Of a stretch of DNA of 36,176 nt, positions 1 through 34,758 are shown piece after piece (position 1 is the stretch's first letter; each line of letters begins with the position of its first letter). The translations under genes and the position numbers were made by a program. The notes under the pieces are model-generated. The model was given only the letters and a program-made list of their open reading frames with translations, had not been told where the DNA came from and searched no databases. The DNA lies in contig JAYZBY010000045.1 in assembly GCA_036338555.1 (NCBI GenBank), positions 1 to 36,176 of the forward strand, in the 5' to 3' direction. This DNA comes from Acidobacteriota bacterium (GTDB lineage Bacteria; Acidobacteriota; UBA6911; RPQK01; JADFOI01).

Positions 1-45
1 CTGTGCCTCTGTGGTGAAATTATCTTCTTCTGCGTCTCTTTGGTG
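1..45 (-). repeat. CACCACAGAG-type dispersed repeat, copy 1 (truncated by window edge)
   Basis: CTGTGCCTCTGTGGTGAAA...CTGCGTCTCTTTGGTG; homologous to 6757-6801, 8161-8212, 20496-20549; directly 3' of add. Confidence 0.8.
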
Positions 46-51
46 CAGCCC

Positions 52-5969: not shown

Positions 5970-5970
5970 C

Positions 5971-6453: not shown

Positions 6454-6464
6454 CCCGCCGCCAA

Positions 6465-6485
6465 GCGCTGGTCGAAGACCAGCGC
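6465..6485. repeat. perfect 9-bp hairpin with GAA loop (module also at 14882-14900 and 20323-20343)
   Basis: GCGCTGGTC-GAA-GACCAGCGC. Confidence 0.85.
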
Positions 6486-6541
6486 GTTCCACGTTCCAGG
6501 TTCCACGTTCCAGGTTCCACGTTCCAGGTTCCACGTTTCTG
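6486..6541 (+). repeat. heptamer tandem repeat, alternating GTTCCAC/GTTCCAG
   Basis: 7 perfect units plus one degenerate unit. Confidence 0.95.
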
Positions 6542-6620
6542 GCAAGTGGGAGGCGCCGAAGAATTGCTGAAAGCTAACAAGAAGAGTTCAGGGCTAGGAG
6601 AGGGAGCCGGAATGGTGGGT

Positions 6621-6684
6621 CCGGAGTGGGGGAGGCGCCTCAGTGCGCCGATTTCGGAGAGCCGCTCATAGAGCGGTCACTACA
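6621..6684 (+). repeat. REP-like doublet (REP-A plus inverted REP-B)
   Basis: CCGGAGTGGGGGAGGCGC-CTCAGT-GCGCCGATTTCGG then CCGCTC-ATA-GAGCGG...CTACA (GTAG on the minus strand). Confidence 0.75.
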
Positions 6685-6695
6685 ATTTTGGAAGA

Positions 6696-6752
6696 AAATC
6701 CGAAATCCGAAGTCCCAAACTCGAAACAGATTCCAATTAGGGTTTCGGATTT
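6696..6752. repeat. AAATCCG-type heptamers, + oriented at 6696-6723 and - oriented at 6739-6752
   Basis: AAATCCG AAATCCG AAGTCCC AAACTCG; GGGTTTCGGATTT. Confidence 0.7.
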
Positions 6753-6756
6753 CTTT

Positions 6757-6801
6757 CTGTGTCTCTGTGGTGAAATTCTTCCCCGTGCCTTGGTGGTGAA
6801 A
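6757..6801 (-). repeat. CACCACAGAG-type dispersed repeat, copy 2
   Basis: CTGTGTCTCTGTGGTGAAA...CCGTGCCTTGGTGGTGAAA abutting the pgeF stop. Confidence 0.85.
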
Positions 6802-6803
6802 AA

Positions 6804-7550
6804 CTAGCTTCGAAAGCCTGCCAACAACCAGTTTCGCCCGGTTTCGCCTTCTTTTCGGTAAGAATAGAACAAATCGGTTCGGCAGGCCGTGCACATCCCG
6901 GAGTCCAGGACCCGGGTCACTCCCAATCCCCGGATCTGTGCCTGATTGGCCCGGACCAGGTCCAGTTGACCTCCCCCAAACAACTGATCCACATTATGCC
7001 CCGCCTCTTCAAACTGAGACCGCACCTCGGGACCCACCCGATAGCAGCAGCTGCGAATACCGGGTCCAATGGCCACGGTCACCTCCTCCGGAGTCACTCC
7101 GGGTAATTCCAGAAGTCGGGTAACCCCGCTCACGGCAATTCGATCCCGGGTCCCTCGCCAACCGGCATGCAGGAGGCATATTTGCTGCTTGGCAACCGCC
7201 AAAATGGGAAGGCAATCGGCGGTTCGGATCACCGGAAACTGATCGGAAGGCTGGACCAAAATCCCATCGGCAGGCCCAATCACAGCAGGCTCATGTTCCT
7301 TAGCAGAAGAGGGTTTCAATCTCACCACCTGGCTGGAATGAACCTGCTCCAGAAAGACCAACTGGCCTGCTCGGATTCCCAGTGCCGCGAGAAGGGCCTC
7401 GCCTTGCGTCGCATCTGAAATCGATGGATTTGCATCATTGATGGACGAGTCACTCTGACGTAAAGTAAAGGCGTGAACAAGATTTGGAATTGCTTCCAGT
7501 TCCTGGAATACAAAGAAGGTGGTCCCACCCAATTTCTTTTCGTAGAACAT
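6804..7550 (-). CDS. pgeF: YfiH/PgeF laccase-domain protein (purine nucleoside phosphorylase-like)
   Basis: QVHS, RTADCLPI, HAGWRG, GPGI..CCY, CT...FYSYR motifs. Confidence 0.88.
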   Translation of the reverse strand: MFYEKKLGGTTFFVFQELEAIPNLVHAFTLRQSDSSINDANPSISDATQGEALLAALGIRAGQLVFLEQVHSSQVVRLKPSSAKEHEPAVIGPADGILVQPSDQFPVIRTADCLPILAVAKQQICLLHAGWRGTRDRIAVSGVTRLLELPGVTPEEVTVAIGPGIRSCCYRVGPEVRSQFEEAGHNVDQLFGGGQLDLVRANQAQIRGLGVTRVLDSGMCTACRTDLFYSYRKEGETGRNWLLAGFRS

Positions 7551-7576
7551 CCGTCTGAAAAGGCTAACACAGGTCC

Positions 7577-7951
7577 ATGATCGTTGGCATAGGCATTGAT
7601 ATTGTCGAGATTCACCGCATCAGTACGGCTCTAAAAGGCACCCGGGCCATGGAACAAAGGGTCTTCACTCCGGAGGAGATCCGCTTCTGCTCTAAGCGCA
7701 AGAACAAGTACCAGCACTTCGGTGGGCGCTTCGCCGCCAAGGAGGCCGCCTTGAAGGCCCTGGGCACGGGATGGAGTCAGGGAATCCGCTGGAAGGACGT
7801 GGAGATCACTAGCGACGACTCGGGGAAGCCGATCCTCACCCTGCACGGCAAGGCCAGAGAGTTTTTTAAAAGCTCCGGTGCGCGCCACACCTGGGTCTCA
7901 ATCACTCACTCCTCAGAGCACGCCGTGGCCGTGGTGGTGTTGGAGAAGTGA
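7577..7951 (+). CDS. acpS: holo-[acyl-carrier-protein] synthase
   Basis: GIGIDIVEI, RFAAKEAALKALGTG, GKP, VSITH. Confidence 0.96.
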   Translation: MIVGIGIDIVEIHRISTALKGTRAMEQRVFTPEEIRFCSKRKNKYQHFGGRFAAKEAALKALGTGWSQGIRWKDVEITSDDSGKPILTLHGKAREFFKSSGARHTWVSITHSSEHAVAVVVLEK

Positions 7952-7959
7952 AGGACCGG

Positions 7960-7999
<40 letters not shown>

Positions 8000-8026
8000 A
8001 GGGGATGGTGATCCTTGCAGACTGAC

Positions 8027-8056
8027 AGAAAATCCGAAATTCGAAATCCAAATCCA
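8027..8056 (+). repeat. AAATCCG-type heptamer repeat
   Basis: AGAAAATCCGAAAT identical to 6693-6706, continuing TCG AAATCCA AATCCA. Confidence 0.75.
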
Positions 8057-8131
8057 GCCTGTTCTCCAGGTAGAGTGGCTGCCAAAGCGACCTGGCCGTG
8101 GGCTGGCGCTGCCCTGCAACCTGGCTGGTGA

Positions 8132-8157
8132 TCAGGGGCTAGGGGTCAGGGGTTAGC
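8132..8157 (-). repeat. ACCCCTG-type heptamer repeat
   Basis: TCAGGGGCTAGGGGTCAGGGGTTAGC; shares GGTCAGGGGTTAGCCT with 16085-16100. Confidence 0.8.
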
Positions 8158-8160
8158 CTT

Positions 8161-8212
8161 CTCGGTGTCTTTGTGTCTCTGTGGTGAAAATTTCTTCTCT
8201 GCGTCTTTGTGA
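8161..8212 (-). repeat. CACCACAGAG-type dispersed repeat, copy 3
   Basis: GTGTCTTTGTGTCTCTGTGGTGAAAATTTCTT, nearly identical to the 20501-20532 copy. Confidence 0.88.
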
Positions 8213-8230
8213 TTAGGCGCGGGATCGCCG

Positions 8231-9550
8231 CTAAACCTCCAGCACCAGATATCTGTCATCCCCTTCAGAGACCACTTTTCCTTCCAGAATCTGGTTAGCG
8301 GGGATCCCCGGATCTATCTTGGCCTTCAAATAGTTGCCGGAAATAGCGGTTCGCATCTGGCCTTTCGTTTCGCTTAGAGTCAGGACGGACAGCGCTTTGC
8401 CCACAAACCGGCGTCTAAATAAACGGTTTTTTTCATCCGAGATCTGCCGCAGTTCTTCGCCGCGGGACTTGGTGGTTGGGGGCTCGACCTTCAGGGACAT
8501 CTCCGAGGCGGTCGTGCCACTGCGGTCGCTATAGGGAAAAACGTGCAGATAGGTAAAGGGCATCCGAGTGACAAAGTCCACCGTTTCGCGATGATCCCGA
8601 TCGGTTTCTCCCGGAAATCCGGCAATCACATCGGTTCCAATGGCGGCATCAGGAATTCGCCGGTGGATCTCTTCAACGATTTCTCCAAAGCGGGCCGTAT
8701 TGTAGGGCCTGAGCATCTTCTTGAGAATTCGGTCGCTGCCACTTTGCAGGCAGATGTGAAAATGGGGGGCAATCTGCTGGCTGTCTGCAGCCAGAGCCGT
8801 TACGCGGCGGGAAAGCTGCATGGGCTCAACAGAGCTGAGCCGGACCCGTTCCAGTCCGGGCACAGCCATGATTCCGGTCAACAGACGGTCAAGAGAGGAG
8901 CGTGGTTTGAGGTGCATCCCGTAGGTCCCGATGTGAATTCCGGTCAAAACGACTTCCTTGAATCCTGCTGTGACCAAATCCCGGCATTGTTCGAACACCA
9001 ACTCAGGAGGAACGCTGCGGCTGGGCCCCCGGACCTGGGGAATAATGCAGTAGGTACATTTGGCGTCACAACCATCCTGGATCTTGATGAAGGGCCGAGT
9101 GCGGCCCCCGGTTTCGGTAGCCGGTATCGCCAGGATGGACCGAGCCCTGGTGAAATCATCGCGGAAAACCTCCGCCAGTTCGGCCTGGTAGAGAAGGGAA
9201 GGCTTCTCTCCTCTCCTGGTACCCAGCGCCGCAACCTGATCCTTGTGGCTGTTTCCGATAACGGCACTCACCCCTCCCAGTGCGGCCAGCGTTTCGGGAG
9301 CTCGCTGGGCATAACAGCCGGTCAGGATAATCCGCGCCTTTGGATTTTCGCGGTGCAGCTTGCGTGTCATCTGGCGAACCTGCTGATCGGAACGATGGGT
9401 TACCGTACACGAGTTCACCACAATCACATCGGCTTGTTTGGGGCCATCCGTTTCCTGGAAATCAAGGGTGAGAAACTGCTCCCGGATGGCGGCGCTGTCG
9501 GCCTGATTGGTACGACAACCAAAGGTTGCCAGGTAGAATTTCTTTGCCAT
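8231..9550 (-). CDS. mtaB: tRNA t6A37 methylthiotransferase MtaB
   Basis: TFGCRTNQ, NSCTVT, TGCYAQ, radical-SAM CDAKCTYC, HVFPYS; start re-placed at MAKKFY (track start 9610). Confidence 0.92.
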   Translation of the reverse strand: MAKKFYLATFGCRTNQADSAAIREQFLTLDFQETDGPKQADVIVVNSCTVTHRSDQQVRQMTRKLHRENPKARIILTGCYAQRAPETLAALGGVSAVIGNSHKDQVAALGTRRGEKPSLLYQAELAEVFRDDFTRARSILAIPATETGGRTRPFIKIQDGCDAKCTYCIIPQVRGPSRSVPPELVFEQCRDLVTAGFKEVVLTGIHIGTYGMHLKPRSSLDRLLTGIMAVPGLERVRLSSVEPMQLSRRVTALAADSQQIAPHFHICLQSGSDRILKKMLRPYNTARFGEIVEEIHRRIPDAAIGTDVIAGFPGETDRDHRETVDFVTRMPFTYLHVFPYSDRSGTTASEMSLKVEPPTTKSRGEELRQISDEKNRLFRRRFVGKALSVLTLSETKGQMRTAISGNYLKAKIDPGIPANQILEGKVVSEGDDRYLVLEV

Positions 9551-9685
9551 TTTTCCGCGCCCAATGCCCCAACCAAGGGGGCTATTCCTTTTCACACTCA
9601 GCTGATACATTCTATCTTAGTGCCTCGCCTCATAGATACAATGATGTTTACTGATGGGTCTTGTGAGGTGAGGTCAAGGAGTTTT

Positions 9686-9870
9686 TAGCCCGGATTTTGT
9701 ATAGGTTGTCGTAACGAAGGGCCGCAATCATCCGTGCTGACTGCGTTGTGCTTCCTTGGGCTCCTCGGCGTACTGCGTGAGTGCGCCTGCGGGGCCCTGC
9801 GTCGCACGCCTTGTCATCGCGGTGGCGGCGAGCCACAAACGTCACCGCATATATGGAACGAGGCATCTAG
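9686..9870. mobile_element. MITE-like palindromic element, diverged copy of 34947-35174 in opposite orientation
   Basis: starts TAGCCCGGA; core 9737-9816 is the reverse-complement homolog of 35021-35099; central hairpin GGCGTACT/AGTGCGCC. Confidence 0.65.
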
Positions 9871-9871
9871 C

Positions 9872-10651
9872 ATGAAAATAACTGTTCTGGGGAGTGGGAG
9901 CGGCGGCAACTGCACTTGCATTGTCACGAAAAATACCTGCGTCCTGGTCGATCTCGGCTTTGGCTGGCGCAGTCTGAGCAGACGGCTTAACGAGGCCGGG
10001 CTTCACAACCAGCATATCGATGCAGTTCTTCTCACCCACGGCCACTCGGATCATACCAAGGGCATTGCCTCTTTCCGATCCCGTTCCGCCGCACCCATTT
10101 TTGCCAATCGAGGAACTCAAGGAGAAGTTGCAGCACTGGGGGACATGGATGGCAAGGAAAGCTTTTGCTCCTACTCGCCGTTTGTCATTGGTGATCTGGA
10201 GATCGAAGCCTTCCCGGTGTCCCACGATGCCGCTGAGCCGGTCGGCTTTCGCTTTTCAGCCGGGGGCATTGACGGTGCGCTGGCCACCGACCTGGGCGAA
10301 CTCAGCCACCAGGTTGCGGCCAAGCTCCGGGGTTGTGATTGGCTGATCCTGGAGTCCAACCATGACGAGCAAATGCTGAAAATCGGGCCCTACCCCTGGG
10401 ACGTCAAGCAACGCGTGATGAGCCGCCTTGGGCACCTCTCCAACCAGGAGCTTTCCGGCTTCCTCACCGGTCACTTCGACGGCCAAGCTTCTCATATCCT
10501 GCTTGCCCATCTGAGCCGTCAAAACAACCTTCCCGAAGTGGCCCTCGAGCACGCCTCCCAGGCGCTTTCCCTGCAATCTCCGCGGTCGGCCGAAGACCCT
10601 CAATTGCACCTGACCTATCAGAACAAGCCCTCCGTGGTTCTAAACTTTTAA
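9872..10651 (+). CDS. metallo-beta-lactamase-fold hydrolase (YycJ/WalJ-like)
   Basis: LGSGSGGN, THGHSDH, SHDA, TDLG, LESNHD, GHLSN, LAHLS..NN; start re-placed from 9734. Confidence 0.88.
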   Translation: MKITVLGSGSGGNCTCIVTKNTCVLVDLGFGWRSLSRRLNEAGLHNQHIDAVLLTHGHSDHTKGIASFRSRSAAPIFANRGTQGEVAALGDMDGKESFCSYSPFVIGDLEIEAFPVSHDAAEPVGFRFSAGGIDGALATDLGELSHQVAAKLRGCDWLILESNHDEQMLKIGPYPWDVKQRVMSRLGHLSNQELSGFLTGHFDGQASHILLAHLSRQNNLPEVALEHASQALSLQSPRSAEDPQLHLTYQNKPSVVLNF

Positions 10652-10679
10652 TAAATCGGTCCATCCTTAGCGTGTGCAC

Positions 10680-10710
10680 TTGACTCGACGGGTCGAACCC
10701 TCCATATTCT
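10680..10710 (+). promoter_or_regulatory. putative leaderless sigma70 promoter of purB-pncB-peptidase
   Basis: TTGACT-N19-TATTCT, 7 nt before ATG 10718; spacer is unusually long. Confidence 0.45.
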
Positions 10711-10717
10711 TTAACTG

Positions 10718-12013
10718 ATGATCCCTCGATACACACTGCCCGAAATGGAACAGATCTGGTCGGACGAGAACAAATTTCGAACCTGGCTCGAGGTCGAGAT
10801 CGCCGTCTGTGAAGTCTTGGCAGAAATGGGAGAAATTCCCGAAGACGCGCTCAAGGAGATCCAGCAAAAAGCGGATTTCTCGGTCGAGCGCATTCAGGAG
10901 ATCGAGGCCCTCACCCGTCATGACGTGATCGCCTTCACCACGGCGGTCGCCGAGAAGGTCGGCCCGGCGTCGCGCTTTATCCACTTCGGATTGACCTCAA
11001 CCGATGTGGTTGACACGGCTCAGGCCCTGCAGATCCGGGAGGCGTCCCAGCTCATTGAGGCGGGACTCGTCGAACTGCTCTCTATATTGAAGTCACAAGC
11101 CCTGCGCTACAAGGATCTCCCCATGATCGGCCGTACCCACGGCATTCATGCCGAGCCGGTCACCTTTGGCCTGAAGCTGGCGGTCTGGTACTCGGAAATG
11201 GAACGCAACCTCGAGCGTTTTCGACGGGCTCGAAAGGGCCTGGAAGTTGGCAAGATCAGCGGACCCGTGGGTTCGTTTTCTCATCTCCCTCCCCAGGTTG
11301 AAGAAAAAGTCTGCGAGAAATTGGGAATCGATTTCGCTCGGGCCTCCACCCAGACCCTGCAACGCGACCGTCACGCCGAGTACCTGTGCACTCTGGCCAT
11401 CCTGGGGGGAACCTACGACAAGATGGCCACGGAAATCCGTCATCTTCTGAGAACCGAAGTTCAGGAGGCCAGCGAGCCTTTTGGAGCCCAACAAAAGGGC
11501 AGTTCCGCCATGCCCCACAAGAAAAATCCGATCACCTGTGAGCAAATTAGCGGTTTGGCCCGCGTGCTTCGCAGCAACGCTCAGGTTGCACTGGAAAACA
11601 TGCCCCTGTGGCACGAAAGGGACATCTCGCACTCCTCGGCGGAAAGGGTGATTCTTCCGGACAGCACCACCTTGACCCACTATCTGACCCAAAGGCTGGC
11701 TGCCATCCTGAAGGATCTGGTCGTTCATGAATCCCGGATGACAGCCAACCTCAATCTCACCCGGGGCCTGATTTTCTCGGGGAGCCTGCTGCTCGAGCTA
11801 GTTCGAAAGGGTGTCCTGCGGGAGGAAGCCTATTCCTGGGTTCAGCGCAACGCCTTGCGAGTGTCGGACGAAGCAACAGACTTCGAAACTCTAATCACCA
11901 AAGATCCGGACATTACCACCCACCTTACCTCGAGCGAAATCCAGGACATTTTCAACGTTCAAAACCGACTCCAGCACATTGATGCCGTGTTTGAACGAGT
12001 CTTTGGGTCTTGA
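10718..12013 (+). CDS. purB: adenylosuccinate lyase
   Basis: MIPRY, TRHDVIAF, GRTHGIHAEP, GSSAMPHKKNP, HERDISHSSAER. Confidence 0.97.
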   Translation: MIPRYTLPEMEQIWSDENKFRTWLEVEIAVCEVLAEMGEIPEDALKEIQQKADFSVERIQEIEALTRHDVIAFTTAVAEKVGPASRFIHFGLTSTDVVDTAQALQIREASQLIEAGLVELLSILKSQALRYKDLPMIGRTHGIHAEPVTFGLKLAVWYSEMERNLERFRRARKGLEVGKISGPVGSFSHLPPQVEEKVCEKLGIDFARASTQTLQRDRHAEYLCTLAILGGTYDKMATEIRHLLRTEVQEASEPFGAQQKGSSAMPHKKNPITCEQISGLARVLRSNAQVALENMPLWHERDISHSSAERVILPDSTTLTHYLTQRLAAILKDLVVHESRMTANLNLTRGLIFSGSLLLELVRKGVLREEAYSWVQRNALRVSDEATDFETLITKDPDITTHLTSSEIQDIFNVQNRLQHIDAVFERVFGS

Positions 12014-13383
12014 TGAAGCCGGCTTCACTCTTTCCCTCCGAAGAGACCCTGGCCATCAATACCGACCTGTACGAACTGACCATGGCCGCGGCCTACTTCA
12101 AGGCCGGGCGGATAGAAGATCGAGTTACTTTCGAGCTGTTCACCCGGCGACTGCCGGCCGCTCGGAGTTTTCTGGTCGCCGCAGGTCTGGAGCAGGCTTT
12201 GCACTTTATTGAAAATCTGCACTTCAATGATCAAGCCCTGCAATATCTGAGGGGGTTGGAGGTTTTCGAGTCGATTGAGGATGCCTTCTTTGACTATCTG
12301 GGCAGCCTGAAATTCAGCGGTGAGCTCAAGGCCTTGCCCGAGGGGACGGTCTTTTTCCCAAATGAACCCATCCTGCAAATCACAGCCCCCATCATCGAAG
12401 CTCAGATCTTGGAAACCTATCTGATCAACTCCATCAATTTTCAGACCATGGTGGCCTCCAAGGCGGCTCGGATCTGCCTGGCGGCACAAGGCAAGCCGGT
12501 GATTGATTTTGGGACTCGCCGAGCCCACAGTCCCCAGGCCGGCGTGCTGGCGGCCCGGGCGGCCTTCATCGGAGGCTGTGAAGGCACCAGCAACGTTCTG
12601 GCCGGCTACCGGATGGACATCCCCGTTTTCGGAACCATGGCCCATTCCTTCGTTCAGTTCTTCGACCAGGAAACTGAAGCCTTCGAGCGCTTCCAAGAAG
12701 CTTTTCCTCAAGGAACGACGTTTCTAGTCGACACCTACGACACCCTGGCAGGAGTGCGGAAGGTGTTGGATCTTGCAGGCGAGATGGCCGCCGTCCGCCT
12801 TGACAGCGGCGACCTGCACCACTTGGCCCTCGAGACCCGAAGACTACTGGATGAAGGCAATCGCTCCGAAGTCCGAATCTTCGCCAGTGGAGATCTTGAT
12901 GAAGAAAAAATTCAGGACCTTGCCGACGCCCCGATTGACGGCTTCGGCGTCGGCACCAATCTGGTGGTTTCCGCCGATTCCCCCAGCTGCAATCTGGTCT
13001 ATAAACTGGTGGAAGTGACTCGAGAGTGTATCGTTTCTCCGAAGATGAAAACCAGCCCGGGCAAGGCGACGCTGCCCCATCGAAAGCAGATCCACCGCCT
13101 GATCCGTGAGGGGAGCTTCTCAAGCGATCTACTCTGTACCAGCCGTGAGACGCCTCCCAAAAGGAACGGCGAGACTCTCCCGCTTTTGAAAGGCTACCTC
13201 AAGGGCGGCCAGCTTGTCCGTGAGTTGCCCGACCTTTTACAAATCCGGAAATTGGCCGGCGAACAGCTTCAGCAACTGCCTGCATCCCTGAAGGTTCTTC
13301 AGGCCGAGGAGGTCTATCCAGTAGAGTACAGCCCTCGCTTGCAACGCATTCAGAGAAAGCATGAGGAGAATTCCGCCTTATGA
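12013..13383 (+). CDS. pncB: nicotinate phosphoribosyltransferase
   Basis: TDLYELTM, DFGTRRAH, GTMAHS, LVDTYDT, VRLDSGD, GFGVGT; TGATG overlap with purB. Confidence 0.95.
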   Translation: MKPASLFPSEETLAINTDLYELTMAAAYFKAGRIEDRVTFELFTRRLPAARSFLVAAGLEQALHFIENLHFNDQALQYLRGLEVFESIEDAFFDYLGSLKFSGELKALPEGTVFFPNEPILQITAPIIEAQILETYLINSINFQTMVASKAARICLAAQGKPVIDFGTRRAHSPQAGVLAARAAFIGGCEGTSNVLAGYRMDIPVFGTMAHSFVQFFDQETEAFERFQEAFPQGTTFLVDTYDTLAGVRKVLDLAGEMAAVRLDSGDLHHLALETRRLLDEGNRSEVRIFASGDLDEEKIQDLADAPIDGFGVGTNLVVSADSPSCNLVYKLVEVTRECIVSPKMKTSPGKATLPHRKQIHRLIREGSFSSDLLCTSRETPPKRNGETLPLLKGYLKGGQLVRELPDLLQIRKLAGEQLQQLPASLKVLQAEEVYPVEYSPRLQRIQRKHEENSAL

Positions 13384-14753: not shown

Positions 14754-14801
14754 ACTCTGCGAGGTGGTGCGGTCGTGTTTTCGTGCTTTTGTAAGGGATT
14801 A

Positions 14802-14902
14802 CGAGCGACTCTCCGGAGTCGGCGCACTGAAGCGCCTCCCACACTCCGGAAAACTGGAATGTGGAACCTGGAACGTGCAAAGCGCGGGTCGAAGACCAGC
14901 GG
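14802..14902 (-). repeat. composite repeat: hairpin + GTTCCAS heptamers + REP-A + partial REP-B
   Basis: reverse complement reads CCGCTGGTCTTCGACCCGCGC...ACGTTCCAGGTTCCACATTCCAG...CCGGAGTGTGGGAGGCGCTTCAGTGCGCCGACTCCGG; collinear with 20323-20419. Confidence 0.88.
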
Positions 14903-14914
14903 CCGGGAAGGCGC

Positions 14915-15916: not shown

Positions 15917-15937
15917 GGCTCTTTTATAACACAATCA

Positions 15938-16019
15938 TAGGCTGGATCTTTCAGAGGCTCTCGTCGCGAAGCGCTGAGGCCTTCATCTGAGCCAGCCGAA
16001 GCAAGCGCGTAGGGTCGGC
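15938..16019 (+). mobile_element. partial (left-arm) copy of the palindromic element
   Basis: CTCGTCGCGA, GCCTTCATCTGAG and AGGGTCGGC in the same order as in 34969-35019. Confidence 0.6.
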
Positions 16020-16070
16020 GTTCGGCTCTACCGGCCTGAAACCCTGAGGTCAACCCGGGTTCTCCATCCC

Positions 16071-16097
16071 GGTCAGGGGTCAGTGGTCAGGGGTTAG
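16071..16097 (-). repeat. ACCCCTG-type heptamer repeat
   Basis: GGTCAGGGGTCAGTGGTCAGGGGTTAG directly after the acs stop. Confidence 0.85.
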
Positions 16098-16098
16098 C

Positions 16099-18132: not shown

Positions 18133-18175
18133 ACGACATCCTTTCCAGGCTCCCGGTGGGGCCTACCTTGGTTCC

Positions 18176-18236
18176 CCTTGTCAGGGCGGGGTTCTCTTCG
18201 TTCCTCAGATAAAGGCCTCTCTGCTTCGCGGCAAGG
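18176..18236 (-). mobile_element. partial arm copy of the palindromic element in the acs leader region
   Basis: reverse complement CGCGAAGCAG...GCCTTTATCTGAGGAACGAAGA...CCTGACAAGG matches 34974-35028. Confidence 0.65.
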
Positions 18237-18245
18237 ACCCATGCA

Positions 18246-18818: not shown

Positions 18819-18881
18819 GAATTTCTCCGCTGCAGGAAGCCAGTATAATGGGTGCGCCAGGATAACTTAAACCTCCTAGTC

Positions 18882-20315
18882 ATGCGAAGAGCGAAAATAG
18901 TTGCCACTATCGGCCCGGCCAGCAATTCCTTAGAGACGATCGAGGAGTTGATTCGGGCGGGAATGGATGTGGCTCGCCTCAATTTTTCTCACGGAGACCA
19001 CGACTCCCACGCCAAAATGATCACCCGCATTCGCCAGGCCTCCCAATCGCTGGGAAAACCCGTGGCCATCATGCAGGACCTTCAGGGCCTGAAGATCCGG
19101 ACCGGTGAACTGGAGAGCAAAGAATCCGTTGAACTGAGAGCGGGCCAGCGATTCGTGATCACGACGGAAACAATCAAAGGCAGCCAGGAAAGGGTCTCCA
19201 CTTCCTATACATTGCTTCCCCAGGACGTAAAAAGCGGAAATCGCGTTCTTCTATCCGATGGCCTGATCGAACTCCGGGTAAAATCCACCACCGCCACCGA
19301 GGTGGAATGTGAGGTGATCGACGGCGGGACGCTCACGGAAACCCAGGGCATCAATCTGCCCGGGGTGCGCATTTCAGCTCCGGTCCTGACAAAAAAAGAT
19401 TTGGGCGATCTGGCCTTCGGGATAGAACATCAGGTCGACTACGTCGCCCTCTCTTATATTCAACGCGCCGAGGACATTCTGCGCCTGAGAGCGGAATGCC
19501 CCTCCCAGAATCGCGACATACCCATCATCGCAAAACTGGAGACTCCGATGGCGATCGAGAATCTGGACGCCATCATGGAGGCCTGCGATGCCGTCATGGT
19601 GGCGCGAGGAGATCTGGGCGTAGAGCTGGCTCCTGAAAAGGTCCCGGTCATCCAGAAGCAGGTGATAAGCCGCGCCAACCAATTGGGCAAAGCGGTTATC
19701 ACGGCCACTCAGATGCTGGAATCGATGGTCACCAACCCCCGACCCACCCGTGCCGAGGCCTCCGATGTGGCCAACGCCATTTTCGACGGCACCGACGCCG
19801 TAATGCTCTCGGCGGAGACCACCAAGGGCCGTTATCCAGTTGAATCGGTCGTCATGATGGCCAGAATTATTGACGAAGCCGAAAAGGCGGGAAGTCGGAC
19901 CCGGGCAGGCCGGCCACAGAAGGCCGAGGATCTTTCTTTCCCGGAAGCGGTCTGCAACGCCGCTTTTCATGCCTCCAAATCGATCAACGCCCAGGCCATT
20001 GTCGTTTTTACCCAAACCGGCTCCACGGCCCGCATGATCTCCAAGTTTCGTCCTTCAGCAAACATCTTTGGCCTCACCCCTCACTCTCGGGTGATGAACC
20101 GAATGGCCCTTTATTGGGGAGTTCAACCCCTACAGATGCCGGAGATCGCCAACCTGGAACAGTTGATCGAGGAACTGGAGAAGCTTCTACTCAAAATCAA
20201 ACTGGTTTCCGCCGGAGACAAGCTGATCATCCTCACGGGCGGCACCATCGTCCAGGAGGGCAGCACCACCCTGATGAAACTGCACGAAGTGAAACCCCTG
20301 ACCCCTGACCCCTGA
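18882..20315 (+). CDS. pyk: pyruvate kinase
   Basis: KIVATIGPAS, ARLNFSHG, MVARGDLGVE, ATQMLESM, PTRAEASDVANA; start re-placed from 18852. Confidence 0.97.
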   Translation: MRRAKIVATIGPASNSLETIEELIRAGMDVARLNFSHGDHDSHAKMITRIRQASQSLGKPVAIMQDLQGLKIRTGELESKESVELRAGQRFVITTETIKGSQERVSTSYTLLPQDVKSGNRVLLSDGLIELRVKSTTATEVECEVIDGGTLTETQGINLPGVRISAPVLTKKDLGDLAFGIEHQVDYVALSYIQRAEDILRLRAECPSQNRDIPIIAKLETPMAIENLDAIMEACDAVMVARGDLGVELAPEKVPVIQKQVISRANQLGKAVITATQMLESMVTNPRPTRAEASDVANAIFDGTDAVMLSAETTKGRYPVESVVMMARIIDEAEKAGSRTRAGRPQKAEDLSFPEAVCNAAFHASKSINAQAIVVFTQTGSTARMISKFRPSANIFGLTPHSRVMNRMALYWGVQPLQMPEIANLEQLIEELEKLLLKIKLVSAGDKLIILTGGTIVQEGSTTLMKLHEVKPLTPDP

Positions 20316-20419
20316 CCGGGGGCCGCTGGTCTTCGACCAGCGGATTCCACGTTCCAGGTTTCACGTTTCCGGAGTGTGGGAGGCACCTCAGCGCACCGAT
20401 TCCGGAAAGCCGCTCACAG
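20294..20419 (+). repeat. composite repeat: (ACCCCTG)3 + hairpin + GTTCCAS heptamers + REP-A + partial REP-B
   Basis: ACCCCTG x3 at 20294-20314; CCGCTGGTC-TTC-GACCAGCGG at 20323-20343; heptamers at 20344-20371; REP-A at 20369-20405. Confidence 0.9.
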
Positions 20420-20463
20420 TTGCTCGCCAGATTTCCAGCATCGCTCCGAAGGGGCGACAGGAT

Positions 20464-20492
20464 CTGAGTCAGGGCGTCCCGCCCTGACTCAG
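20464..20492. terminator. perfect 13-bp hairpin, possible terminator between convergent pyk and RND genes
   Basis: CTGAGTCAGGGCG-TCC-CGCCCTGACTCAG followed by TCTTCTCT; no clean U-tract. Confidence 0.45.
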
Positions 20493-20495
20493 TCT

Positions 20496-20549
20496 TCTCT
20501 GTGTCTTTGTGTCTCTGGGGTGAAAATTTCTTTCTGTGCCTTTGTGGTA
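20496..20549 (-). repeat. CACCACAGAG-type dispersed repeat, copy 4
   Basis: TCTCTGTGTCTTTGTGTCTCTGGGGTGAAAATTTCTTTCTGTGCCTTTGTGGTA. Confidence 0.88.
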
Positions 20550-20559
20550 AGACTCGATA

Positions 20560-23500
20560 TCAGGCAGGCGAGGGTCGACGACTGAGAATTCTGGAGACCA
20601 AACGGATCAGGTAGCTACCCCCTCGCGAGACATCGTCCATGTAGGAATACACGGTGGGCAGAATGATCAGGGTGAGAAACGTCGAGGTGGTCAGGCCGCC
20701 CAGCACGGCCAGGCTGATAGGAGTCCACATGCCGGCCCGGCCCTGAGCGGCTGGAAAGTATTCCGGTAAAAGAGCAGGCAACGATAGGGGTAAAAGGCCA
20801 AAAAGCGAGGTTGCCGCCGTCATTAAAATGGGGCGAAGGCGGTCCATCCCACCCTGACGAATGGCCTCACTCCGGGGCATGCCCTGACCTCTCAAAATAT
20901 TGATGTGCGCAATCAGGATGATCCCGTTGTTCACGACGATCCCAAACAGGACCAAAATGCCGAGATAGGCCATCGAATTGAGCGTGGTTCCCGTCAGGTA
21001 AAAGATGCCAGCCACTCCGATGATGGAGAAGGGCACGCAAAAAAGAATCGTCAAGGGGTGGATAAAGCTCTCGAACAGAGCCGCCATGATGATGTACATC
21101 AGAGTGAGCGCCAAGATAATAGCAAATAAACTATCCTGTTCCCCGCGCCGAAAACGCATCCAATCACGGCCGAAATCAAACGAGTACCCGGCCGGCAGCT
21201 GAAGCTGACTCTCCAGCTCACCCCGAATCGCCTCAGTGAGGAACACCCCACCTCCACGTTCGGCGTTCGCCGTCACCTGGAGAGTCCCCTTGCGGTCATC
21301 CCGCCGGATGGACAAAGGACCCTTCTGATACTGGTAGTCGGCAACGGCATAGAGAGGGATCATCTCACCATTCCGATTTTCAAAATGGACATTCTGCAAT
21401 TCCTGCAGGCTCAGATCATTCCCTTCTTCGAGCTGCATTACCACATCGATCTCACCATCATCGCTCTTGTACCGAGTCACGGAACGAGTGCTCAAGGCTG
21501 AGGCAACAGTTCGGGCGACCAGCTGGGAAGAAATTCCGAACTGTTCCGTCTTCCGTCGATCCACCATCAAATGAATCTCTTCATCGCCCGTTTCCAAAGA
21601 ACTTTCCACATCCTGGATCTCCGACATCTCTGAAAGAATCGACTTGACTTGCTCCGCATACATGGCCAGGACGGCCGACTCATCTCCTTTCAACTCGACG
21701 TTGACGCCCATTTCACCGCCACCCATTCGGTGCATGCGCCCGAAGCTGAAAGCGGCTCCCGGGACTTCCGGGAAAAGACCTCGCACCTGCTCCTGGACCA
21801 CTTCGGTCGGGTTAATGTCCCCCTCATCTTCCAGAAAGATGGTCATGGTTCCCCGGTACTGCCCGCGGTTGGTGGTCCTGTTGCTGAAATTGCTGGAAAC
21901 GCTGGCCACACCCAGCTCCTGCTTGCGATCCAGAATAAGCCTCTCGACATCGGTGAACAGGGCGATCATATCCTGAGCCGAAAAGGAGCGCTCCATGGTT
22001 ACGCTCACCCTCAGGTTCCGCTGAGATACCCGGGGGAGCATTTCCCGGTCAATCGAATTGAAGAGGTGATAGGAGGCGAATCCCAGCAGCGCCATCACGA
22101 TAAGCGCCACGAACCTCCAGCGCAACAGCCATCCCATGAGAGCCCCGTAGGTCTCGGTCAGCCACACAATGATCCGCTGCTTGGGCTTCTCCTCTCCCGT
22201 AAAGATGCGGCTCGCCAGCATCGGGATCAGGGTGAGGGAGACGATCAGAGCCGCCGTCAAGGCCACACCCACGGTCAAACCGAAATCCTTCATGAACCGA
22301 CCCATCTGAGAACCGGGCGCGAAGATAAAACTGGCAAAGACTACCAGGGTCGTCGCGGTGGAGGCCAGCACCGCCATTCCGACTTCCTTGCTGCCCAGGA
22401 TGGCTGCTTCACGGGCCTCCAGGCCTTTATCCTGCTTGTAGCGGAAGATGTTCTCCAGAACTACGACACTGCTGTCGACCAGCATCCCGATGGCGACCAT
22501 GAGGCCCATCAAAGACACCACGTTCAGGCTAATATCGGAGCCGGCAAAAACTCGGAGCAAATACATGAAAGCAAAAGTGAAAACGATCGACACCGGAATG
22601 GCGATGGAAATAATGAGGGTGCTGCGAAACTTCCTCATGAAGAAGAACAGCACGCCCATGGCCAGAACGCCCCCGTAGATTCCAGCGGCTTTCAGGTCGT
22701 CCAAGCTCTTGACGATTGCTTCGGACTGGTCCCGGAAAATTCTTGTCGATAATTGTCCCGCCAGCTGGGGTAACGCCTGGATCTCTTCCAATTCCGCCTT
22801 CAACAATTCAGCCACGTTGACGACATTGGCCGTGGAAGACTTGTAGACATTGAAATTAACAGCGTTGATGCCGTTGAGGCGAGAAAAGGAGGTCTTCTCG
22901 GGGTAGTCATACCGAACCTGGGCGACATCGGCCAGGCTGAAGCGTCCGCCTCGCAGGGGCAGACTAGCAATCTCATCGATGTCCGAAAACTCACCCACCG
23001 TTCTGAGGCTGTACTTTTTGCCCCCATCCATGACGTAGCCCCCGGCAACGTTGAGGTTGTTGCTGCGCAGCGCCTGGTTCAAATTGAAGATATCGATCCC
23101 GTAGGCCTGGAGTAATCCCTGGTCCAAATCAATGATGATCTGCTTGGTGTCCATGCCCCTGACCTCGACATTGGCGACCCCTTCGATTGGTTCCAGGCGG
23201 CGGCGCAGGGTCTCTTCAACCACCTGATACAGTTCCTCGCTATCTCCGCTCCAGGAAACGGAAAAGCGCAGTACCGGCTGATCGTCATCGTGCCATCTCC
23301 TGATAGCAACACGCTCCACGTCGGTCGGCAACGTGTTCCTGACCTGATCGATTCGGTCCCGTATGTCCAGGGACATGAGGTCCATGTCGGTCCCCTGGGC
23401 GAACTCGAGCCGAAGGGTGGATCGGCTCCCGGATGACGTCGAGTTGATGCTCTCCAGATTGTCCAGAGTGCTGAGGACTTCTTCCAACGGCCGGGTGATG

Positions 23501-23685
23501 TTCTGCTCCACCTCTTCGGGAGAGGAGGAAGGATAATCCACATTCACCGACAGCATGGCAAAGGAAATCTCCGGCATTTGCTTCAGGGGCAGGCGCTGCA
23601 GGGACAAAAAGCCCAGAACCAGAATGGAAAGGGTTGCCATCAGGACCGCTACCGGTCGATGCACTGAAAATCTGGACAGATTCAT
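20560..23685 (-). CDS. RND efflux transporter permease subunit 2
   Basis: 1041 aa; RPVA, YP..SPEEVEQ.IT.PLEE, GMLVDSSVVVLENI, RLRPILMT. Confidence 0.93.
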   Translation of the reverse strand: MNLSRFSVHRPVAVLMATLSILVLGFLSLQRLPLKQMPEISFAMLSVNVDYPSSSPEEVEQNITRPLEEVLSTLDNLESINSTSSGSRSTLRLEFAQGTDMDLMSLDIRDRIDQVRNTLPTDVERVAIRRWHDDDQPVLRFSVSWSGDSEELYQVVEETLRRRLEPIEGVANVEVRGMDTKQIIIDLDQGLLQAYGIDIFNLNQALRSNNLNVAGGYVMDGGKKYSLRTVGEFSDIDEIASLPLRGGRFSLADVAQVRYDYPEKTSFSRLNGINAVNFNVYKSSTANVVNVAELLKAELEEIQALPQLAGQLSTRIFRDQSEAIVKSLDDLKAAGIYGGVLAMGVLFFFMRKFRSTLIISIAIPVSIVFTFAFMYLLRVFAGSDISLNVVSLMGLMVAIGMLVDSSVVVLENIFRYKQDKGLEAREAAILGSKEVGMAVLASTATTLVVFASFIFAPGSQMGRFMKDFGLTVGVALTAALIVSLTLIPMLASRIFTGEEKPKQRIIVWLTETYGALMGWLLRWRFVALIVMALLGFASYHLFNSIDREMLPRVSQRNLRVSVTMERSFSAQDMIALFTDVERLILDRKQELGVASVSSNFSNRTTNRGQYRGTMTIFLEDEGDINPTEVVQEQVRGLFPEVPGAAFSFGRMHRMGGGEMGVNVELKGDESAVLAMYAEQVKSILSEMSEIQDVESSLETGDEEIHLMVDRRKTEQFGISSQLVARTVASALSTRSVTRYKSDDGEIDVVMQLEEGNDLSLQELQNVHFENRNGEMIPLYAVADYQYQKGPLSIRRDDRKGTLQVTANAERGGGVFLTEAIRGELESQLQLPAGYSFDFGRDWMRFRRGEQDSLFAIILALTLMYIIMAALFESFIHPLTILFCVPFSIIGVAGIFYLTGTTLNSMAYLGILVLFGIVVNNGIILIAHINILRGQGMPRSEAIRQGGMDRLRPILMTAATSLFGLLPLSLPALLPEYFPAAQGRAGMWTPISLAVLGGLTTSTFLTLIILPTVYSYMDDVSRGGSYLIRLVSRILSRRPSPA

Positions 23686-26726: not shown

Positions 26727-28249
26727 GGCCGGCGGGATACATCTCTATTTCTAAAGCGCTGCATCATCTGCTGGGCAAAGGTCCTCTTTTTATCAAAATC
26801 GGTGGCCAACTCAGGATCATCGACCAGACGGGACTCATACTCTTTCTTGATCTCAGGATCGTTGAGCAACCGACCCATCATGCGATCCACCATCTCCGGC
26901 GAAAGCGAGCCCTGGCCGCCTCTACCGCCAGGCCCTCCTCCTCTGGCCTGTTGTACGCGCTGCCGCTCTCGGTTAGGAACATTCGAGCCTTGCGGGGTGT
27001 CCGGAGCGCTCGCCGGCAAAGACGCCGCCGAACCTGGAGGTGAACTGGCCGAAGTTTGCTCAGAGGGTGGACTTCCATCCCACGACAGCACATTGACGGC
27101 ATAGCCATCGGCCAGGCCCTCATAGCCGACCGTGACGACCGCCTCTCCAGCCCTGATTCCCTCCACGATTTCGACCCAGTCTTCCTCGCTGAAGCCAAGG
27201 GTGACTTCACGTTTCTCGACCAGATTTTCGGCTGTGATGACAAAGGCTCGATTTTCATCGCGCTCACGCAAGATGGCCTTCTTGGGAATCACCACCGCAT
27301 CGGGGCGCGTTTCGGTCGCGATGTAAACGGTTCCAAACATCCCTGGCCGCAGCCGGTTGGTCCTTTCCATCTCCAGGGTCACCTTGACGGTTCCCGAGGC
27401 GGCATCGACAGTTGGATTGATCATCTTGATCCGAGCCGGAAACTCCTCCTCAGGAAAGGTCTCCACAACCACCTCGGCTTTCTGGCCCACCCGCAATTCG
27501 GGCAACTCCTTCTCAGGAACAAAAATTCTTGCCCACAACGGAGGGAACTCCTCGATGCTGAAGACCTCCTGATTGGAGTTGACTCGATCGCCCACTTCAA
27601 CCAGTCGCTGGGTGATCACACCATCTATGGGGGCCACGATCCGGGTGTATTCCATTTGGATGGTGGCCGCCCGCAGCCGGGCCTGAGCCGCCTCGTACTG
27701 CTGCTGGGCGGCGGCGGTACCCAGGCGATCGGTGCGATGGGTCAGGGAAGCCTGATCGAATTCCTGCTTGCTGATCAGCCTTTGCTCCAAAAGATCCTGG
27801 GCCCGGGCATGGTTGACTTCTGAGAGCTGGGCCTTCACCTCTGCCTGTTCCAGTTGCAGTCTCTCTTGATCCACCGCGATATCCGCCTGCTCATACTCAT
27901 TTCGAACTTCTCGATCCTCGAGCCGGGCCAGCACCTCCGCCGCCCGAACCGGGACCCCTTCCTCCACCAGAATCTCTTCGACGATGGCATTGAGCTTGGC
28001 ATGAACGGTCACCCTGCGAATCGATTCAACCGTTGTATTGGAGACGATATAGGTGGAAATAGGTTCGGTTGTGGCCAGGTAGGCCCTCACGCTGACGGCG
28101 CGAACTTCCCCTGAGCCACTCCGGCTACCCCGCCCGGGGCCACCCCGGGTGGAATTATTCCTCGCGGTCTCAGCTTCCTCCCCGCCCGAGCAGGCAATCA
28201 GAAAAAACAACTGCAGGAGAAGAGCCAACCCAGTGGATTTATGTCGCAT
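26723..28249 (-). CDS. RND periplasmic adaptor (membrane fusion protein), lipoprotein
   Basis: lipobox LIAC at Cys20, APIDGVI, LRPGMF, long helical hairpin, C-terminal extension. Confidence 0.9.
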   Translation of the reverse strand: MRHKSTGLALLLQLFFLIACSGGEEAETARNNSTRGGPGRGSRSGSGEVRAVSVRAYLATTEPISTYIVSNTTVESIRRVTVHAKLNAIVEEILVEEGVPVRAAEVLARLEDREVRNEYEQADIAVDQERLQLEQAEVKAQLSEVNHARAQDLLEQRLISKQEFDQASLTHRTDRLGTAAAQQQYEAAQARLRAATIQMEYTRIVAPIDGVITQRLVEVGDRVNSNQEVFSIEEFPPLWARIFVPEKELPELRVGQKAEVVVETFPEEEFPARIKMINPTVDAASGTVKVTLEMERTNRLRPGMFGTVYIATETRPDAVVIPKKAILRERDENRAFVITAENLVEKREVTLGFSEEDWVEIVEGIRAGEAVVTVGYEGLADGYAVNVLSWDGSPPSEQTSASSPPGSAASLPASAPDTPQGSNVPNRERQRVQQARGGGPGGRGGQGSLSPEMVDRMMGRLLNDPEIKKEYESRLVDDPELATDFDKKRTFAQQMMQRFRNRDVSRRP

Positions 28250-28284
28250 CGGTATTCCCGGCTACTATAAGGCACAGGTTAATG

Positions 28285-28310
28285 TACGAACCGGACCGCC
28301 CAGCGTTTCA
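28285..28310 (-). promoter_or_regulatory. ECF sigma-type promoter for the efflux operon
   Basis: TGAAAC-N16-CGTA, 35 nt upstream of the MFP start. Confidence 0.6.
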
Positions 28311-28499
28311 TTTGGTGGATTCGGGGCCGATTCGTAAGCTCCTTGCGAGTATAGCGCAAACATGCTGGACGAGACCTCTCGTTTTGGTGGGAAAGGCTAA
28401 TGACTGTTCAAGAGTATAGAGAAGCTCTTCGGCCACCTTCTTACCTTCTACGACTCGAACCAGGGGCCACTGAAAAGCTGCAAGGTGTGAGAGCCTGGG

Positions 28500-28700
28500 T
28501 TAACGGGGAGGATACTGCCGTCTCTTCTTCCGAGCCCGCTTCCTGGCCAGGGCCGCCTTCAATCGTTTCTTTTCTCCCGGCTTCAGGTTGAAAGCGTGCT
28601 TTTTGGCATCCCGTATGATGTCTTCCTGCTGCACCTTCCGCTTGAAGCGGCGCAGGGCGCTTTCCAGGGATTCGCCATCATGTACGATTACATCTGCCAA
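28500..28700 (-). CDS. rpsU: 30S ribosomal protein S21
   Basis: GESLESALRRFKRKV...KPGEKKR, basic tail; TTG start. Confidence 0.93.
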   Translation of the reverse strand: MADVIVHDGESLESALRRFKRKVQQEDIIRDAKKHAFNLKPGEKKRLKAALARKRARKKRRQYPPR

Positions 28701-28749
28701 GTCTTTTTGCCCTTCCAGTCAGGCCTTTTTGGCCGGATTCAAGCTACTT

Positions 28750-28779
28750 AGGATACGGGAGAGCCTTTTGATCTGTCAA
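28750..28779 (-). promoter_or_regulatory. sigma70-type promoter of rpsU
   Basis: TTGACA-N18-TATCCT. Confidence 0.65.
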
Positions 28780-28848
28780 GGGAGGGCATGGATGGCGGAA
28801 TAGGGGAGGGGCCTCCCGCTTCGCGGACTCGTGGGGTGGTGCAATCGA

Positions 28849-28918
28849 CCGGAATCGGCGCGCTGAGCGCCTCCTACACTCCGGAGGGCCGCTCTATGAG
28901 CGGCCGCTCTGTGAGCGG
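28849..28918 (-). repeat. two tandem REP-B hairpins followed by REP-A
   Basis: minus strand: CCGCTC-ACA-GAGCGG CCGCTC-ATA-GAGCGG ... CCGGAGTGTAGGAGGCGC-TCAGC-GCGCCGATTCCGG. Confidence 0.82.
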
Positions 28919-28948
28919 GCTTCAGGTCCACTCCGCCGTGTGTCCCTT

Positions 28949-28966
28949 GGTTAGGGGTCAGGGGTT
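28949..28966 (-). repeat. ACCCCTG-type heptamer repeat
   Basis: GGTTAGGGGTCAGGGGTT directly after the TPR gene stop. Confidence 0.7.
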
Positions 28967-28967
28967 C

Positions 28968-32232: not shown

Positions 32233-32284
32233 GAGTTCTCTCCTTATGGATTCGTCAAATCAAGTCAACTTGGATTGAGTCAGC

Positions 32285-34732
<2,448 letters not shown>

Positions 34733-34758
34733 TCAAAGTGTCCTAAAAAAGTACTATT

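Follow-up and report, generated by a model that had tools for sequence, protein, structure and literature searches.

The gaps between genes in a stretch of Acidobacteriota DNA are, over much of their length, made of short repeats. The stretch (36,176 nucleotides, contig JAYZBY010000045.1; hereafter the window) is the whole of contig C45 of a genome bin, G000. These spacers are probably mosaics comparable to bacterial interspersed mosaic elements (BIMEs), composed of several short dispersed repeat families of the kind linked to repetitive extragenic palindromes (REPs) and REP-associated tyrosine transposases (RAYTs), together with arrays of tandem heptamers. The REP-type hairpin families are CTGGTC-TTC-GACCAG (module E), REP-A, and the GTAG-tagged CCGCTCAYAGAGCGG hairpin (F). 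The tandem heptamer families are GTTCCAS (B), ACCCCTG (C), GAAATCC (G) and GGCCTCT, and they are accompanied by a CA-rich double unit, CACCACAGAG (D). The modules are present in many copies, nest within one another, are quickly reshuffled between sister species and account for about half of the DNA between convergent genes. Their spread and recombination would take place at the DNA level, through a REP-associated tyrosine (HUH) transposase like that of two sister genomes, and the heptamer arrays beside hairpins would be made by slippage or by nuclease-primed unit addition. Selection would then leave repeats where promoters and coding sequence are unharmed, mostly right behind stop codons.

G000 comprises 2.03 Mb in 174 contigs and is 75.7% complete. 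Genes were called with a codon-usage model (1842 genes) and each spacer was classed as convergent, tandem or divergent; DNA was counted as repetitive when a self-comparison of all spacers gave at least five other copies in the genome. Comparisons were made with two sister genomes (G001 and G003), a congener (G002; same genus, 90% complete, 50 contigs) and a closed genome from another family (G035). The flanks of orthologous spacers are 91% identical between G003 and G000, and coding sequence in the window region is about 90% identical in G003 and about 80% in G001.

Dispersed repeat families fill the spacers and form composites

The initial annotation, made from the window alone, described seven spacers built from a shared set of unrelated modules, each reading in the direction of the gene that it follows. 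Its module positions and orientation counts are reproduced exactly by pattern maps and by the strands of genes assigned with Pfam (GTTCCAS 3/3, ACCCCTG 4/4, REP-A 4/4, CACCACAGAG 4/4). The same spacers also carry (GAAATCC)n, (GGCCTCT)n, a TCGCTCCGAAGGAGCGA hairpin and a CTGAGTCAGGGCG hairpin. Four module patterns gave 10, 5, 7 and 4 matches versus 0.07, 0.12, 0.52 and 0.03 expected by chance, and none of the 100 dinucleotide shuffles made for each pattern reached the observed count. At least five other genome copies were found for 311 of the 350 nucleotides in 6454-6803 and for 232 of the 244 in 20316-20559.

Across G000, we observed 139 loci of B, 83 of C, 74 of D, 112 of E, 70 of G, 199 of REP-A and 129 of F, the last counted with a pattern that includes the CTAC after the hairpin (GTAG on the other strand). 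A GTAG-headed REP family that has no member in the window (I) contributes 220 cores, 158 of them with a GT[AG]G head, and in 14 of 14 close pairs the heads face outward. GTGG beside the E hairpin and REP-A was seen by eye only.

Strings of these modules occur in many combinations in 346 spacers of G000. The description of the window as shared modules in varying combinations is sound, but the modules are not fully independent, since an E hairpin, GTTCCAS, REP-A and a CCGCTCAYAGAGCGG (F) hairpin recur as a composite, which is also found as its reverse complement. A perfect hairpin of at least 6 bp ends within 12 nt upstream of 89 of the 125 B arrays, with a gap of 0 or 1 nt in 66 of these; the same criterion is satisfied downstream of 6/125 arrays and in 157/2700 random intergenic 40-mers. 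Beyond the GTTCCAS array, several alternative continuations are found at one junction, among them REP-A (40/128), a GTAG-headed REP and a longer repeat.

Modules are also found inside one another. Nineteen of 140 hairpin-GTTCCAS units lie directly after GAGGCGCCTC, the 10-bp palindrome at the heart of REP-A, and do so in either REP-A orientation. Twelve REP-A copies in G000 are split by inserts and 147 are intact, each insert consisting of a hairpin and array that end in an invariant purine-rich tail, or of a (CTGACAA)n array whose flanks are similar; window positions 6535-6622 represent a REP-A broken in this way. The (CTGACAA)n heptamer array with its purine-rich flanks was seen inside the REP-A loop on contigs C165, C30 and C109. 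The REP-A core GAGGCGCCTC is a perfect palindrome, and the occurrence of REP-A both ways round recalls flip/flop hairpins; 50 copies share the orientation of the F hairpin that comes after them and 10 are flipped.

Spacer content turns over rapidly among relatives

Matches to a triple-heptamer pattern number 205 in G001, 164 in G003, 44 in G035 and 0 in G002. Among 220 spacers orthologous between G000 and G003, 61 carry any of ten modules in either genome; 8 of these have identical sets and 31 share no module. Comparison of orthologous spacers for gain and loss, as proposed in the initial annotation, thus indicates fast turnover. Sharing with G003 is commoner for modules at spacer edges (B 17/43, D 10/25) than for modules further inside (F 3/23, G 1/16, I 0/22).

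The spacers of the window follow the same trend, being almost wholly different in G003 and G001 while gene-proximal units tend to persist. The D units behind the pgeF-like gene (6752..6800) and behind the RND transporter gene (20495..20552) are retained in both sister genomes, the former at the same place, and the composite beside the deaminase gene (14801..14903) is also found in G003. The ACCCCTG heptamers behind acs (16074..16094) are absent from both. The tail of pyruvate kinase is read from an ACCCCTG array (20294-20315), and the tails in G003 and G001 are different and shorter. From G002, only the spacer between purE and pgeF was recovered; it is short, unrelated and without modules. With neither GTTCCAS arrays nor a RAYT match, G002 is a natural repeat-free control.

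Among 89 orthologous spacers that differ in length, 21 do so by a single clean indel. Another repeat family with inverted ends, segments the size of genes and changes in heptamer copy number account for most of these indels, from which no target site of the window's modules can be read. That other family, with inverted ends of the CCCGGATTATGCATA type, lies in the window at 9680-9830, 15938-15990, 18176-18242 and 34946-35165. It is present or absent between G000 and G003 as clean, MITE-like (miniature inverted-repeat transposable element) indels of 70-205 nt, and one copy lies in a divergent spacer. Separately, the G003 orthologue of G000 C33:4434-4760 holds a 128-nt insert with an F hairpin, on either side of which about 23 nt of target sequence are directly repeated. 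Such a structure resembles a product of template switching or slippage and is unlike the short duplication made by a transposase.

Modules direct their 5' side towards the nearest gene

Repeats make up 52.5% of the bases in convergent spacers, 27% in tandem spacers and 12.9% in divergent spacers of G000, and are borne by 143/215, 270/783 and 55/244 of these spacers, respectively. Divergent spacers are thus poorer in repeats, not equally rich, and the concentration behind gene 3' ends that was noted in the window holds for the genome as a whole. Open reading frame (ORF) ends on the module 5' side are 3' ends in 62-72% of cases versus 48% of available ends (3':5' ends: B 76:34, C 41:16, D 42:24; available, 955:1041). 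A preference for convergent and tandem spacers is likewise described for REPs in many genomes (PMC3733652).

The initial annotation further held that module polarity tracks transcription. In convergent spacers, modules do share the direction of the closer gene (B 42/43, C 22/22, D 25/25). Tandem spacers, the only informative class, give same:anti counts relative to transcription of 33:23 (B), 19:11 (C), 17:17 (D), 16:15 (G), 45:39 (REP-A) and 26:34 (F), and orientation there is near random for five of the six oriented modules. REP-A orientation was taken from an asymmetric pattern; a looser pattern with 3 mismatches matched both strands (34:35 in convergent spacers). With strict gene calls, which demand long, high-scoring flanking genes and drop 43 of 110 B loci, the tandem counts are 25:10 (B), 11:8 (C) and 9:12 (D). 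For the hairpin-GTTCCAS unit they are 25:9 in 634 kb of G003 and 21:11 in G035, and 79:43 over three genomes. The claim therefore fails for most modules and survives for hairpin-GTTCCAS, whose preference for reading with the upstream gene is real but moderate (about 65-70%).

A different rule is strong: the 5' side of a module faces the nearest ORF, at its 3' or 5' end alike. In G000 the ORF on the 5' side is closer than that on the 3' side for 92/110 B, 54/57 C, 62/66 D and 49/64 G modules and for 100/123 hairpin-B units; the corresponding counts are 61/74 (B) and 33/34 (D) in G003 and 42/57 in G035. Modules nearest to a gene 5' end accordingly point away from that gene (B 12/15, C 10/11, D 16/18), and all ten of the genes checked beside such modules are real, with a Pfam match starting near the called N-terminus. 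Behind 3' ends, hairpins start a median of 9 nt past the stop (47/83 within 10 nt); before gene 5' ends, the median gap is 104 nt. Five of the seven spacers in the initial annotation lie between convergent genes or at an end of the contig, so following transcription and pointing away from the nearest ORF cannot be told apart from the window alone. Its transcription-like polarity results from this 5'-side rule, combined with nearly all of its repeat-bearing spacers being convergent. The same 5'-neighbour rule was reported for heptamer repeats of Xanthomonas and Nostoc, with no mechanism offered in the available portion of that report (Rehm 2015, PMC4692102).

A stop-codon artefact was rejected for GTTCCAS arrays, which on inspection are free of stop codons in all six reading frames; such an effect does apply to ACCCCTG, which supplies TGA in all three frames within three repeats. 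A sequence-specific target was likewise rejected, as no fixed tetranucleotide precedes the arrays (by eye).

A candidate transposase lies beside the repeats in sister genomes

As the initial annotation stated, the window encodes no responsible enzyme: Pfam searches of its 26 ORFs revealed no transposase, nuclease or reverse transcriptase. It had also proposed a listing of genes flanked by modules, nucleases among them, and a candidate of this kind is present in the sister genomes. A match to REP_Tyr_transpos (NF047646) was found in G001, at 77.8 bits versus a cut-off of 80 and in an ORF truncated by the contig end, and another in G003, with none in the repeat-free G002. The 130 nt upstream of the G001 RAYT gene contain a GGCC-stem hairpin, four GTTCCAS units and a GTAG-headed REP. 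In G003, one flank of the RAYT gene carries a CTGGTC hairpin, a GTTCCAS-type array and a GTAG-REP, and the opposite flank carries that REP in two inverted copies. TnpA-REP has been shown to cut BIMEs and to recombine them (Ton-Hoang 2012, PMC3333891), and alternative cleavage sites and unit addition by nuclease-primed synthesis have been proposed to diversify them (PMC3333891). Acidobacterial REP-type transposases are on record (Di Nocera 2013, PMC3733652).

In G035, three identical copies of an IS200-like Y1 transposase were observed. GTTCCAS arrays of that genome often start 0-7 nt past the stop, and several provide, with their first G, the last base of a TAG stop.

Several observations weigh against REP/RAYT-type mosaics as the explanation. 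No RAYT was found in the 75.7%-complete G000 with Y1_Tnp (PF01797), NF047646 or the G001 RAYT protein as queries, and the GTAG-headed REP that is tied to RAYT genes is absent from the window; a link of the enzyme to the window's own modules would be one of adjacency. RAYT-like genes also occur in other genomes of the family, where GTTCCAS arrays are few, and many arrays of G035 are without any hairpin. The 21 clean indels yielded no clean single insertion of a module of the window. Plain tolerance offers no obvious explanation for hairpins that start so close behind stops, and against-gene orientation right behind 3' ends is rare (C 1/19, D 1/16), as a function would predict. Finally, the cause of the 5'-side rule is explained neither by this analysis nor by the available portions of the cited literature.

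Alternative explanations

Could the modules at spacer edges instead serve as gene-boundary punctuation? They would then be one-way transcription stops or insulators (Rho loading plus a hairpin pause), or hairpins protecting mRNA 3' ends, selected to face outward at both gene ends. We consider this unlikely, although a number of observations fit. Classical terminators, a hairpin followed by a U-run, are not enriched, as the initial annotation had noted: 10 lie on the sense strand versus 14 on the antisense strand behind 856 well-called genes, and the window has 20 versus 17.5±4.1 expected. Rho is encoded in G000. The hairpin modules are predicted to fold strongly, whereas D units, rich in C and A and poor in G, do not fold better than shuffled sequence (z 0.40, -1.61, -0.61); as judged from sequence, the composition and lack of fold of D and ACCCCTG would suit Rho-dependent termination. 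The start of hairpins shortly past stops, the scarcity of wrong-way modules behind 3' ends, and the 79 of 122 tandem hairpin-GTTCCAS units that read with transcription point the same way. With-gene orientation just before 5' ends is also rare (B 3/15, C 1/11, D 2/18), which fits punctuation because a one-way stop in a leader would be harmful.

The sites are, however, poorly conserved, half of the repeat-bearing orthologous spacers (31/61) sharing no module with G003, and the congener G002 does without GTTCCAS arrays. In tandem spacers, neither orientation is preferred by D, C or G, and the DNA behind genes is not C-rich overall (mean (C-G)/(C+G) = -0.007 over 856 genes). Moreover, the repeats of Xanthomonas and Nostoc obey the same rule with the G-rich strand outgoing (PMC4692102). 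Given this opposite composition, base composition cannot be the common cause.

A bolder proposal, which we regard as quite unlikely, is that hairpin-heptamer units are a REP class of their own, in which the 7-base segment is added time and again beside the hairpin foot by an HUH (RAYT-type) nuclease. One-sided growth anchored at an ORF edge would then explain the 5'-neighbour rule in Acidobacteria, Xanthomonas and cyanobacteria, and hosts lacking classical terminators may have adopted the caps as one-way signals at gene boundaries.

The initial annotation listed among its options a transcription-coupled or RNA-templated process that lays modules behind stop codons, their direction copying that of the transcript. 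Each of the 15 module occurrences in the window shares the direction of the gene before it, convergent spacers agree genome-wide, and 3' ends are in 2:1 excess on the module 5' side. Yet the agreement in convergent spacers is equally predicted by a 5' side that faces the nearest ORF, and tandem spacers are near random for all but one oriented module. Modules at the 5' ends of confirmed genes point against the gene, the opposite of what such a process predicts, and divergent spacers do carry modules. A reverse transcriptase was not found in the incomplete G000 with RVT_1 (PF00078). Together, these results make deposition coupled to transcription very improbable.

That replication sets the direction, an HUH enzyme inserting into single-stranded DNA of the lagging strand and gene-strand bias doing the rest, is extremely improbable, as the initial annotation had also concluded: IS200/IS605-type HUH transposases do target the lagging-strand template (PMC6006769) and the 30 triple-heptamer loci first listed for G035 gave about 22 leading:8 lagging, but the fuller G035 set of 57 intergenic arrays with both neighbours called gives 33 leading:24 lagging where genes give 389:260 (origin and terminus placed from sampled GC skew), a GC-skew proxy over 63 G000 contigs yields B 22:31, C 18:14 and D 16:10 with none significant, and the modules of the window lie on both strands, often side by side, even though its right end bears dnaN, gyrB and gyrA and its GC skew is steadily negative, which places it within one replichore, next to the likely origin.

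Comparison with known repeat systems

Mosaics of REPs and RAYTs, described from enterobacteria and pseudomonads (REPtrons, REPINs), share much with the spacers analyzed here: short GC-rich palindromes, hundreds of copies and mosaics of varying make-up (PMC3333891, PMC3733652). Both kinds lie mostly between convergent and same-direction genes and often touch or supply the stop codon; published REPs mostly lie where the neighbouring ORFs are convergent or unidirectional, and their GTAG ends provide stop codons (PMC3733652). Further likenesses are the GTAG-headed members in heads-outward pairs (the I family), the RAYT gene flanked by repeats in sister genomes, and turnover at the species level. 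Here, in contrast, heptamer arrays are fused to the hairpin foot, and the mosaics regularly include further heptamer arrays as well as a CA-rich unit that is not palindromic. The window's own hairpins also lack a plain GTAG head, and the incomplete G000 yielded no RAYT.

Nostoc-type heptamer repeats are the STRR repeats of cyanobacteria. Like the arrays studied here, the GGGAATC repeats of Xanthomonas and the GGGGAYT repeats of Nostoc (Rehm 2015) are intergenic, consist of 7-base tandem units and are rare between divergent genes; their length and sequence vary among close relatives, and they lie closer to the 5'-side ORF whatever its direction, often overlapping its stop (PMC4692102). They differ in being G-rich on the outgoing strand and quadruplex-forming, with four units preferred (PMC4692102). 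The outgoing strand here is either rich in C (ACCCCTG) or mixed (GTTCCAS); G-tracts are missing from both strands of GTTCCAS, and GGGG runs occur only in the complement of ACCCCTG. The arrays here are, in addition, joined to hairpins and REP-like modules, with a transposase candidate at hand.

Intrinsic terminators resemble the E module in placing a GC-rich hairpin just behind the stop codon, but the E hairpin is followed by GTTCCAS, not by T-runs, and hairpin plus T-run sites are no commoner on the sense strand. Terminal inverted ends of the MITE type were seen in the separate CCCGGATTATGCATA-type family and not in the hairpin-GTTCCAS-REP-A-F composite, for which no dedicated inverted-repeat scan was made. 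We found no description of these units in Acidobacteria in the literature, supplementary files being outside the scope of the search.

If the spacers are indeed REP/RAYT-type mosaics, they would constitute a well-documented case of selfish small repeats filling and remodelling the gene gaps of an uncultured marine acidobacterium, and they would explain why such genomes assemble into many short contigs. The 5'-side rule, which holds for several unrelated units in three genomes and matches the 2015 report from distant phyla, points to a general cause. Arrays at the foot of REP-like hairpins beside a RAYT gene provide a concrete enzyme and substrates with which to ask how heptamer arrays arise. 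The lack of classical terminators in G000 also makes it reasonable to consider the repeats as candidate signals at 3' ends.

Layout of the window

The modules of the window are listed in Table 1. The contig start falls inside the first mosaic.

Table 1 Repeat modules in the spacers of the window, with the genes they adjoin.
Position	Strand	Module	Context
1..51	-	Two CA-rich CACCACAGAG-type units (3-16, 32-45)	Adjoin stop of adenosine deaminase gene (52-1089, -)
6465..6485	+	E hairpin GCGCTGGTC-GAA-GACCAGCGC	11 nt past purE stop; GAA-loop orientation is the rarer one
6486..6534	+	B array, seven GTTCCAS heptamers in tandem	Begins at foot of E hairpin
6535..6622	+	REP-A 5' half, truncated (…GTGGGAGGCGCC), then low-copy filler	Broken or nested REP-A
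6623..6657	+	REP-A hairpin (GGAGTGGGGGAGGCGCCTCAGTGCGCCGATTTCGG)	
6661..6684	+	F hairpin GCCGCTCATAGAGCGGT with CACTACA tail	Opposite strand reads as GTAG-headed REP
6694..6750	+	(GAAATCC)n-like heptamer block with downstream partner (G)	
6752..6800	-	D, double CACCACAGAG / CACCACCAAGG unit (CACCACAGAG at 6759-6772)	Abuts stop of Cu-oxidase_4 (pgeF-like) gene at 6804
7962..7996	+	Five GGCCTCT heptamers	10 nt past acpS stop; sole such array in G000
8022..8054	+	(GAAATYC)n heptamer block (G)	
8133..8153	-	ACCCCTG-type heptamers	Co-oriented with mtaB
8160..8215	-	D double unit (CACCACAGAG at 8173-8186)	Behind stop of mtaB (8231-9610, -)
14801..14903	-	Composite: E hairpin (14882-14902), GTTCCAS x3 (14854-14874), REP-A (14813-14847)	Reads from deaminase gene (14915-15934, -)
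16074..16094	-	ACCCCTG-type heptamers	4 nt behind stop of acs (16099-18132, -)
20294..20314	+	Three ACCCCTG heptamers	Encode final residues of pyruvate kinase and its TGA stop
20323..20405	+	Composite: E hairpin (TTC loop), GTTCCAS x3 (20344-20364), REP-A (20371-20405)	Behind pyk
20441..20492		Hairpins TCGCTCCGAAGGGGCGA (J) and 13-bp palindrome CTGAGTCAGGGCG-TCC-CGCCCTGACTCAG (K)	
20495..20552	-	D double unit (CACCACAGAG at 20509-20522)	Behind RND transporter gene (20560-23685, -)
28849..28967	-	ACCCCTG x2 (28952-28965), two F hairpins (28885-28919), REP-A (28849-28883; head at 28866-28882)	From TPR gene (28968-29789, -)

Two details of the initial annotation are amended. Its label deaminase is right for the gene at 14915-15934 (-), but the gene at 7577-7951 encodes holo-ACP synthase (acpS, PF01648). 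Modules are indeed present in 16071-16098, which is, however, only part of a spacer that extends over 15917-16098.

At 20464-20492, the plus strand runs from a perfect 13-bp palindrome into the T/C-rich complement of a D unit; this is the strongest terminator-like site within 5900-21000. Upstream of the TPR-side mosaic, an apparent single long spacer is divided by a 66-aa ORF (within 28500-28700) that encodes ribosomal protein S21.

All 26 ORFs of the window have Pfam matches to ordinary families. They include adenosine deaminase, SerRS, purD, purE, the Cu-oxidase_4 protein, holo-ACP synthase, an MtaB-like radical SAM enzyme, purB, an M20 peptidase, a kinase-deaminase, acetyl-CoA synthetase, pyruvate kinase, two RND pumps with a fusion protein, S21, the TPR protein, gyrA, gyrB and dnaN. 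No Rfam match at gathering thresholds and no tRNA or tmRNA gene (ARAGORN) was found in the window. The best relatives of the pyruvate kinase outside the genus are 54% identical, the top two being from a Nitrospinota and an Acidobacteriota metagenome-assembled genome. Public sequencing runs that contain window DNA are mostly marine or seawater metagenomes. At 29779-36176, gyrA, gyrB and dnaN are successive minus-strand genes, the GC skew is steadily negative, and the contig end probably lies just short of dnaA and the replication origin.

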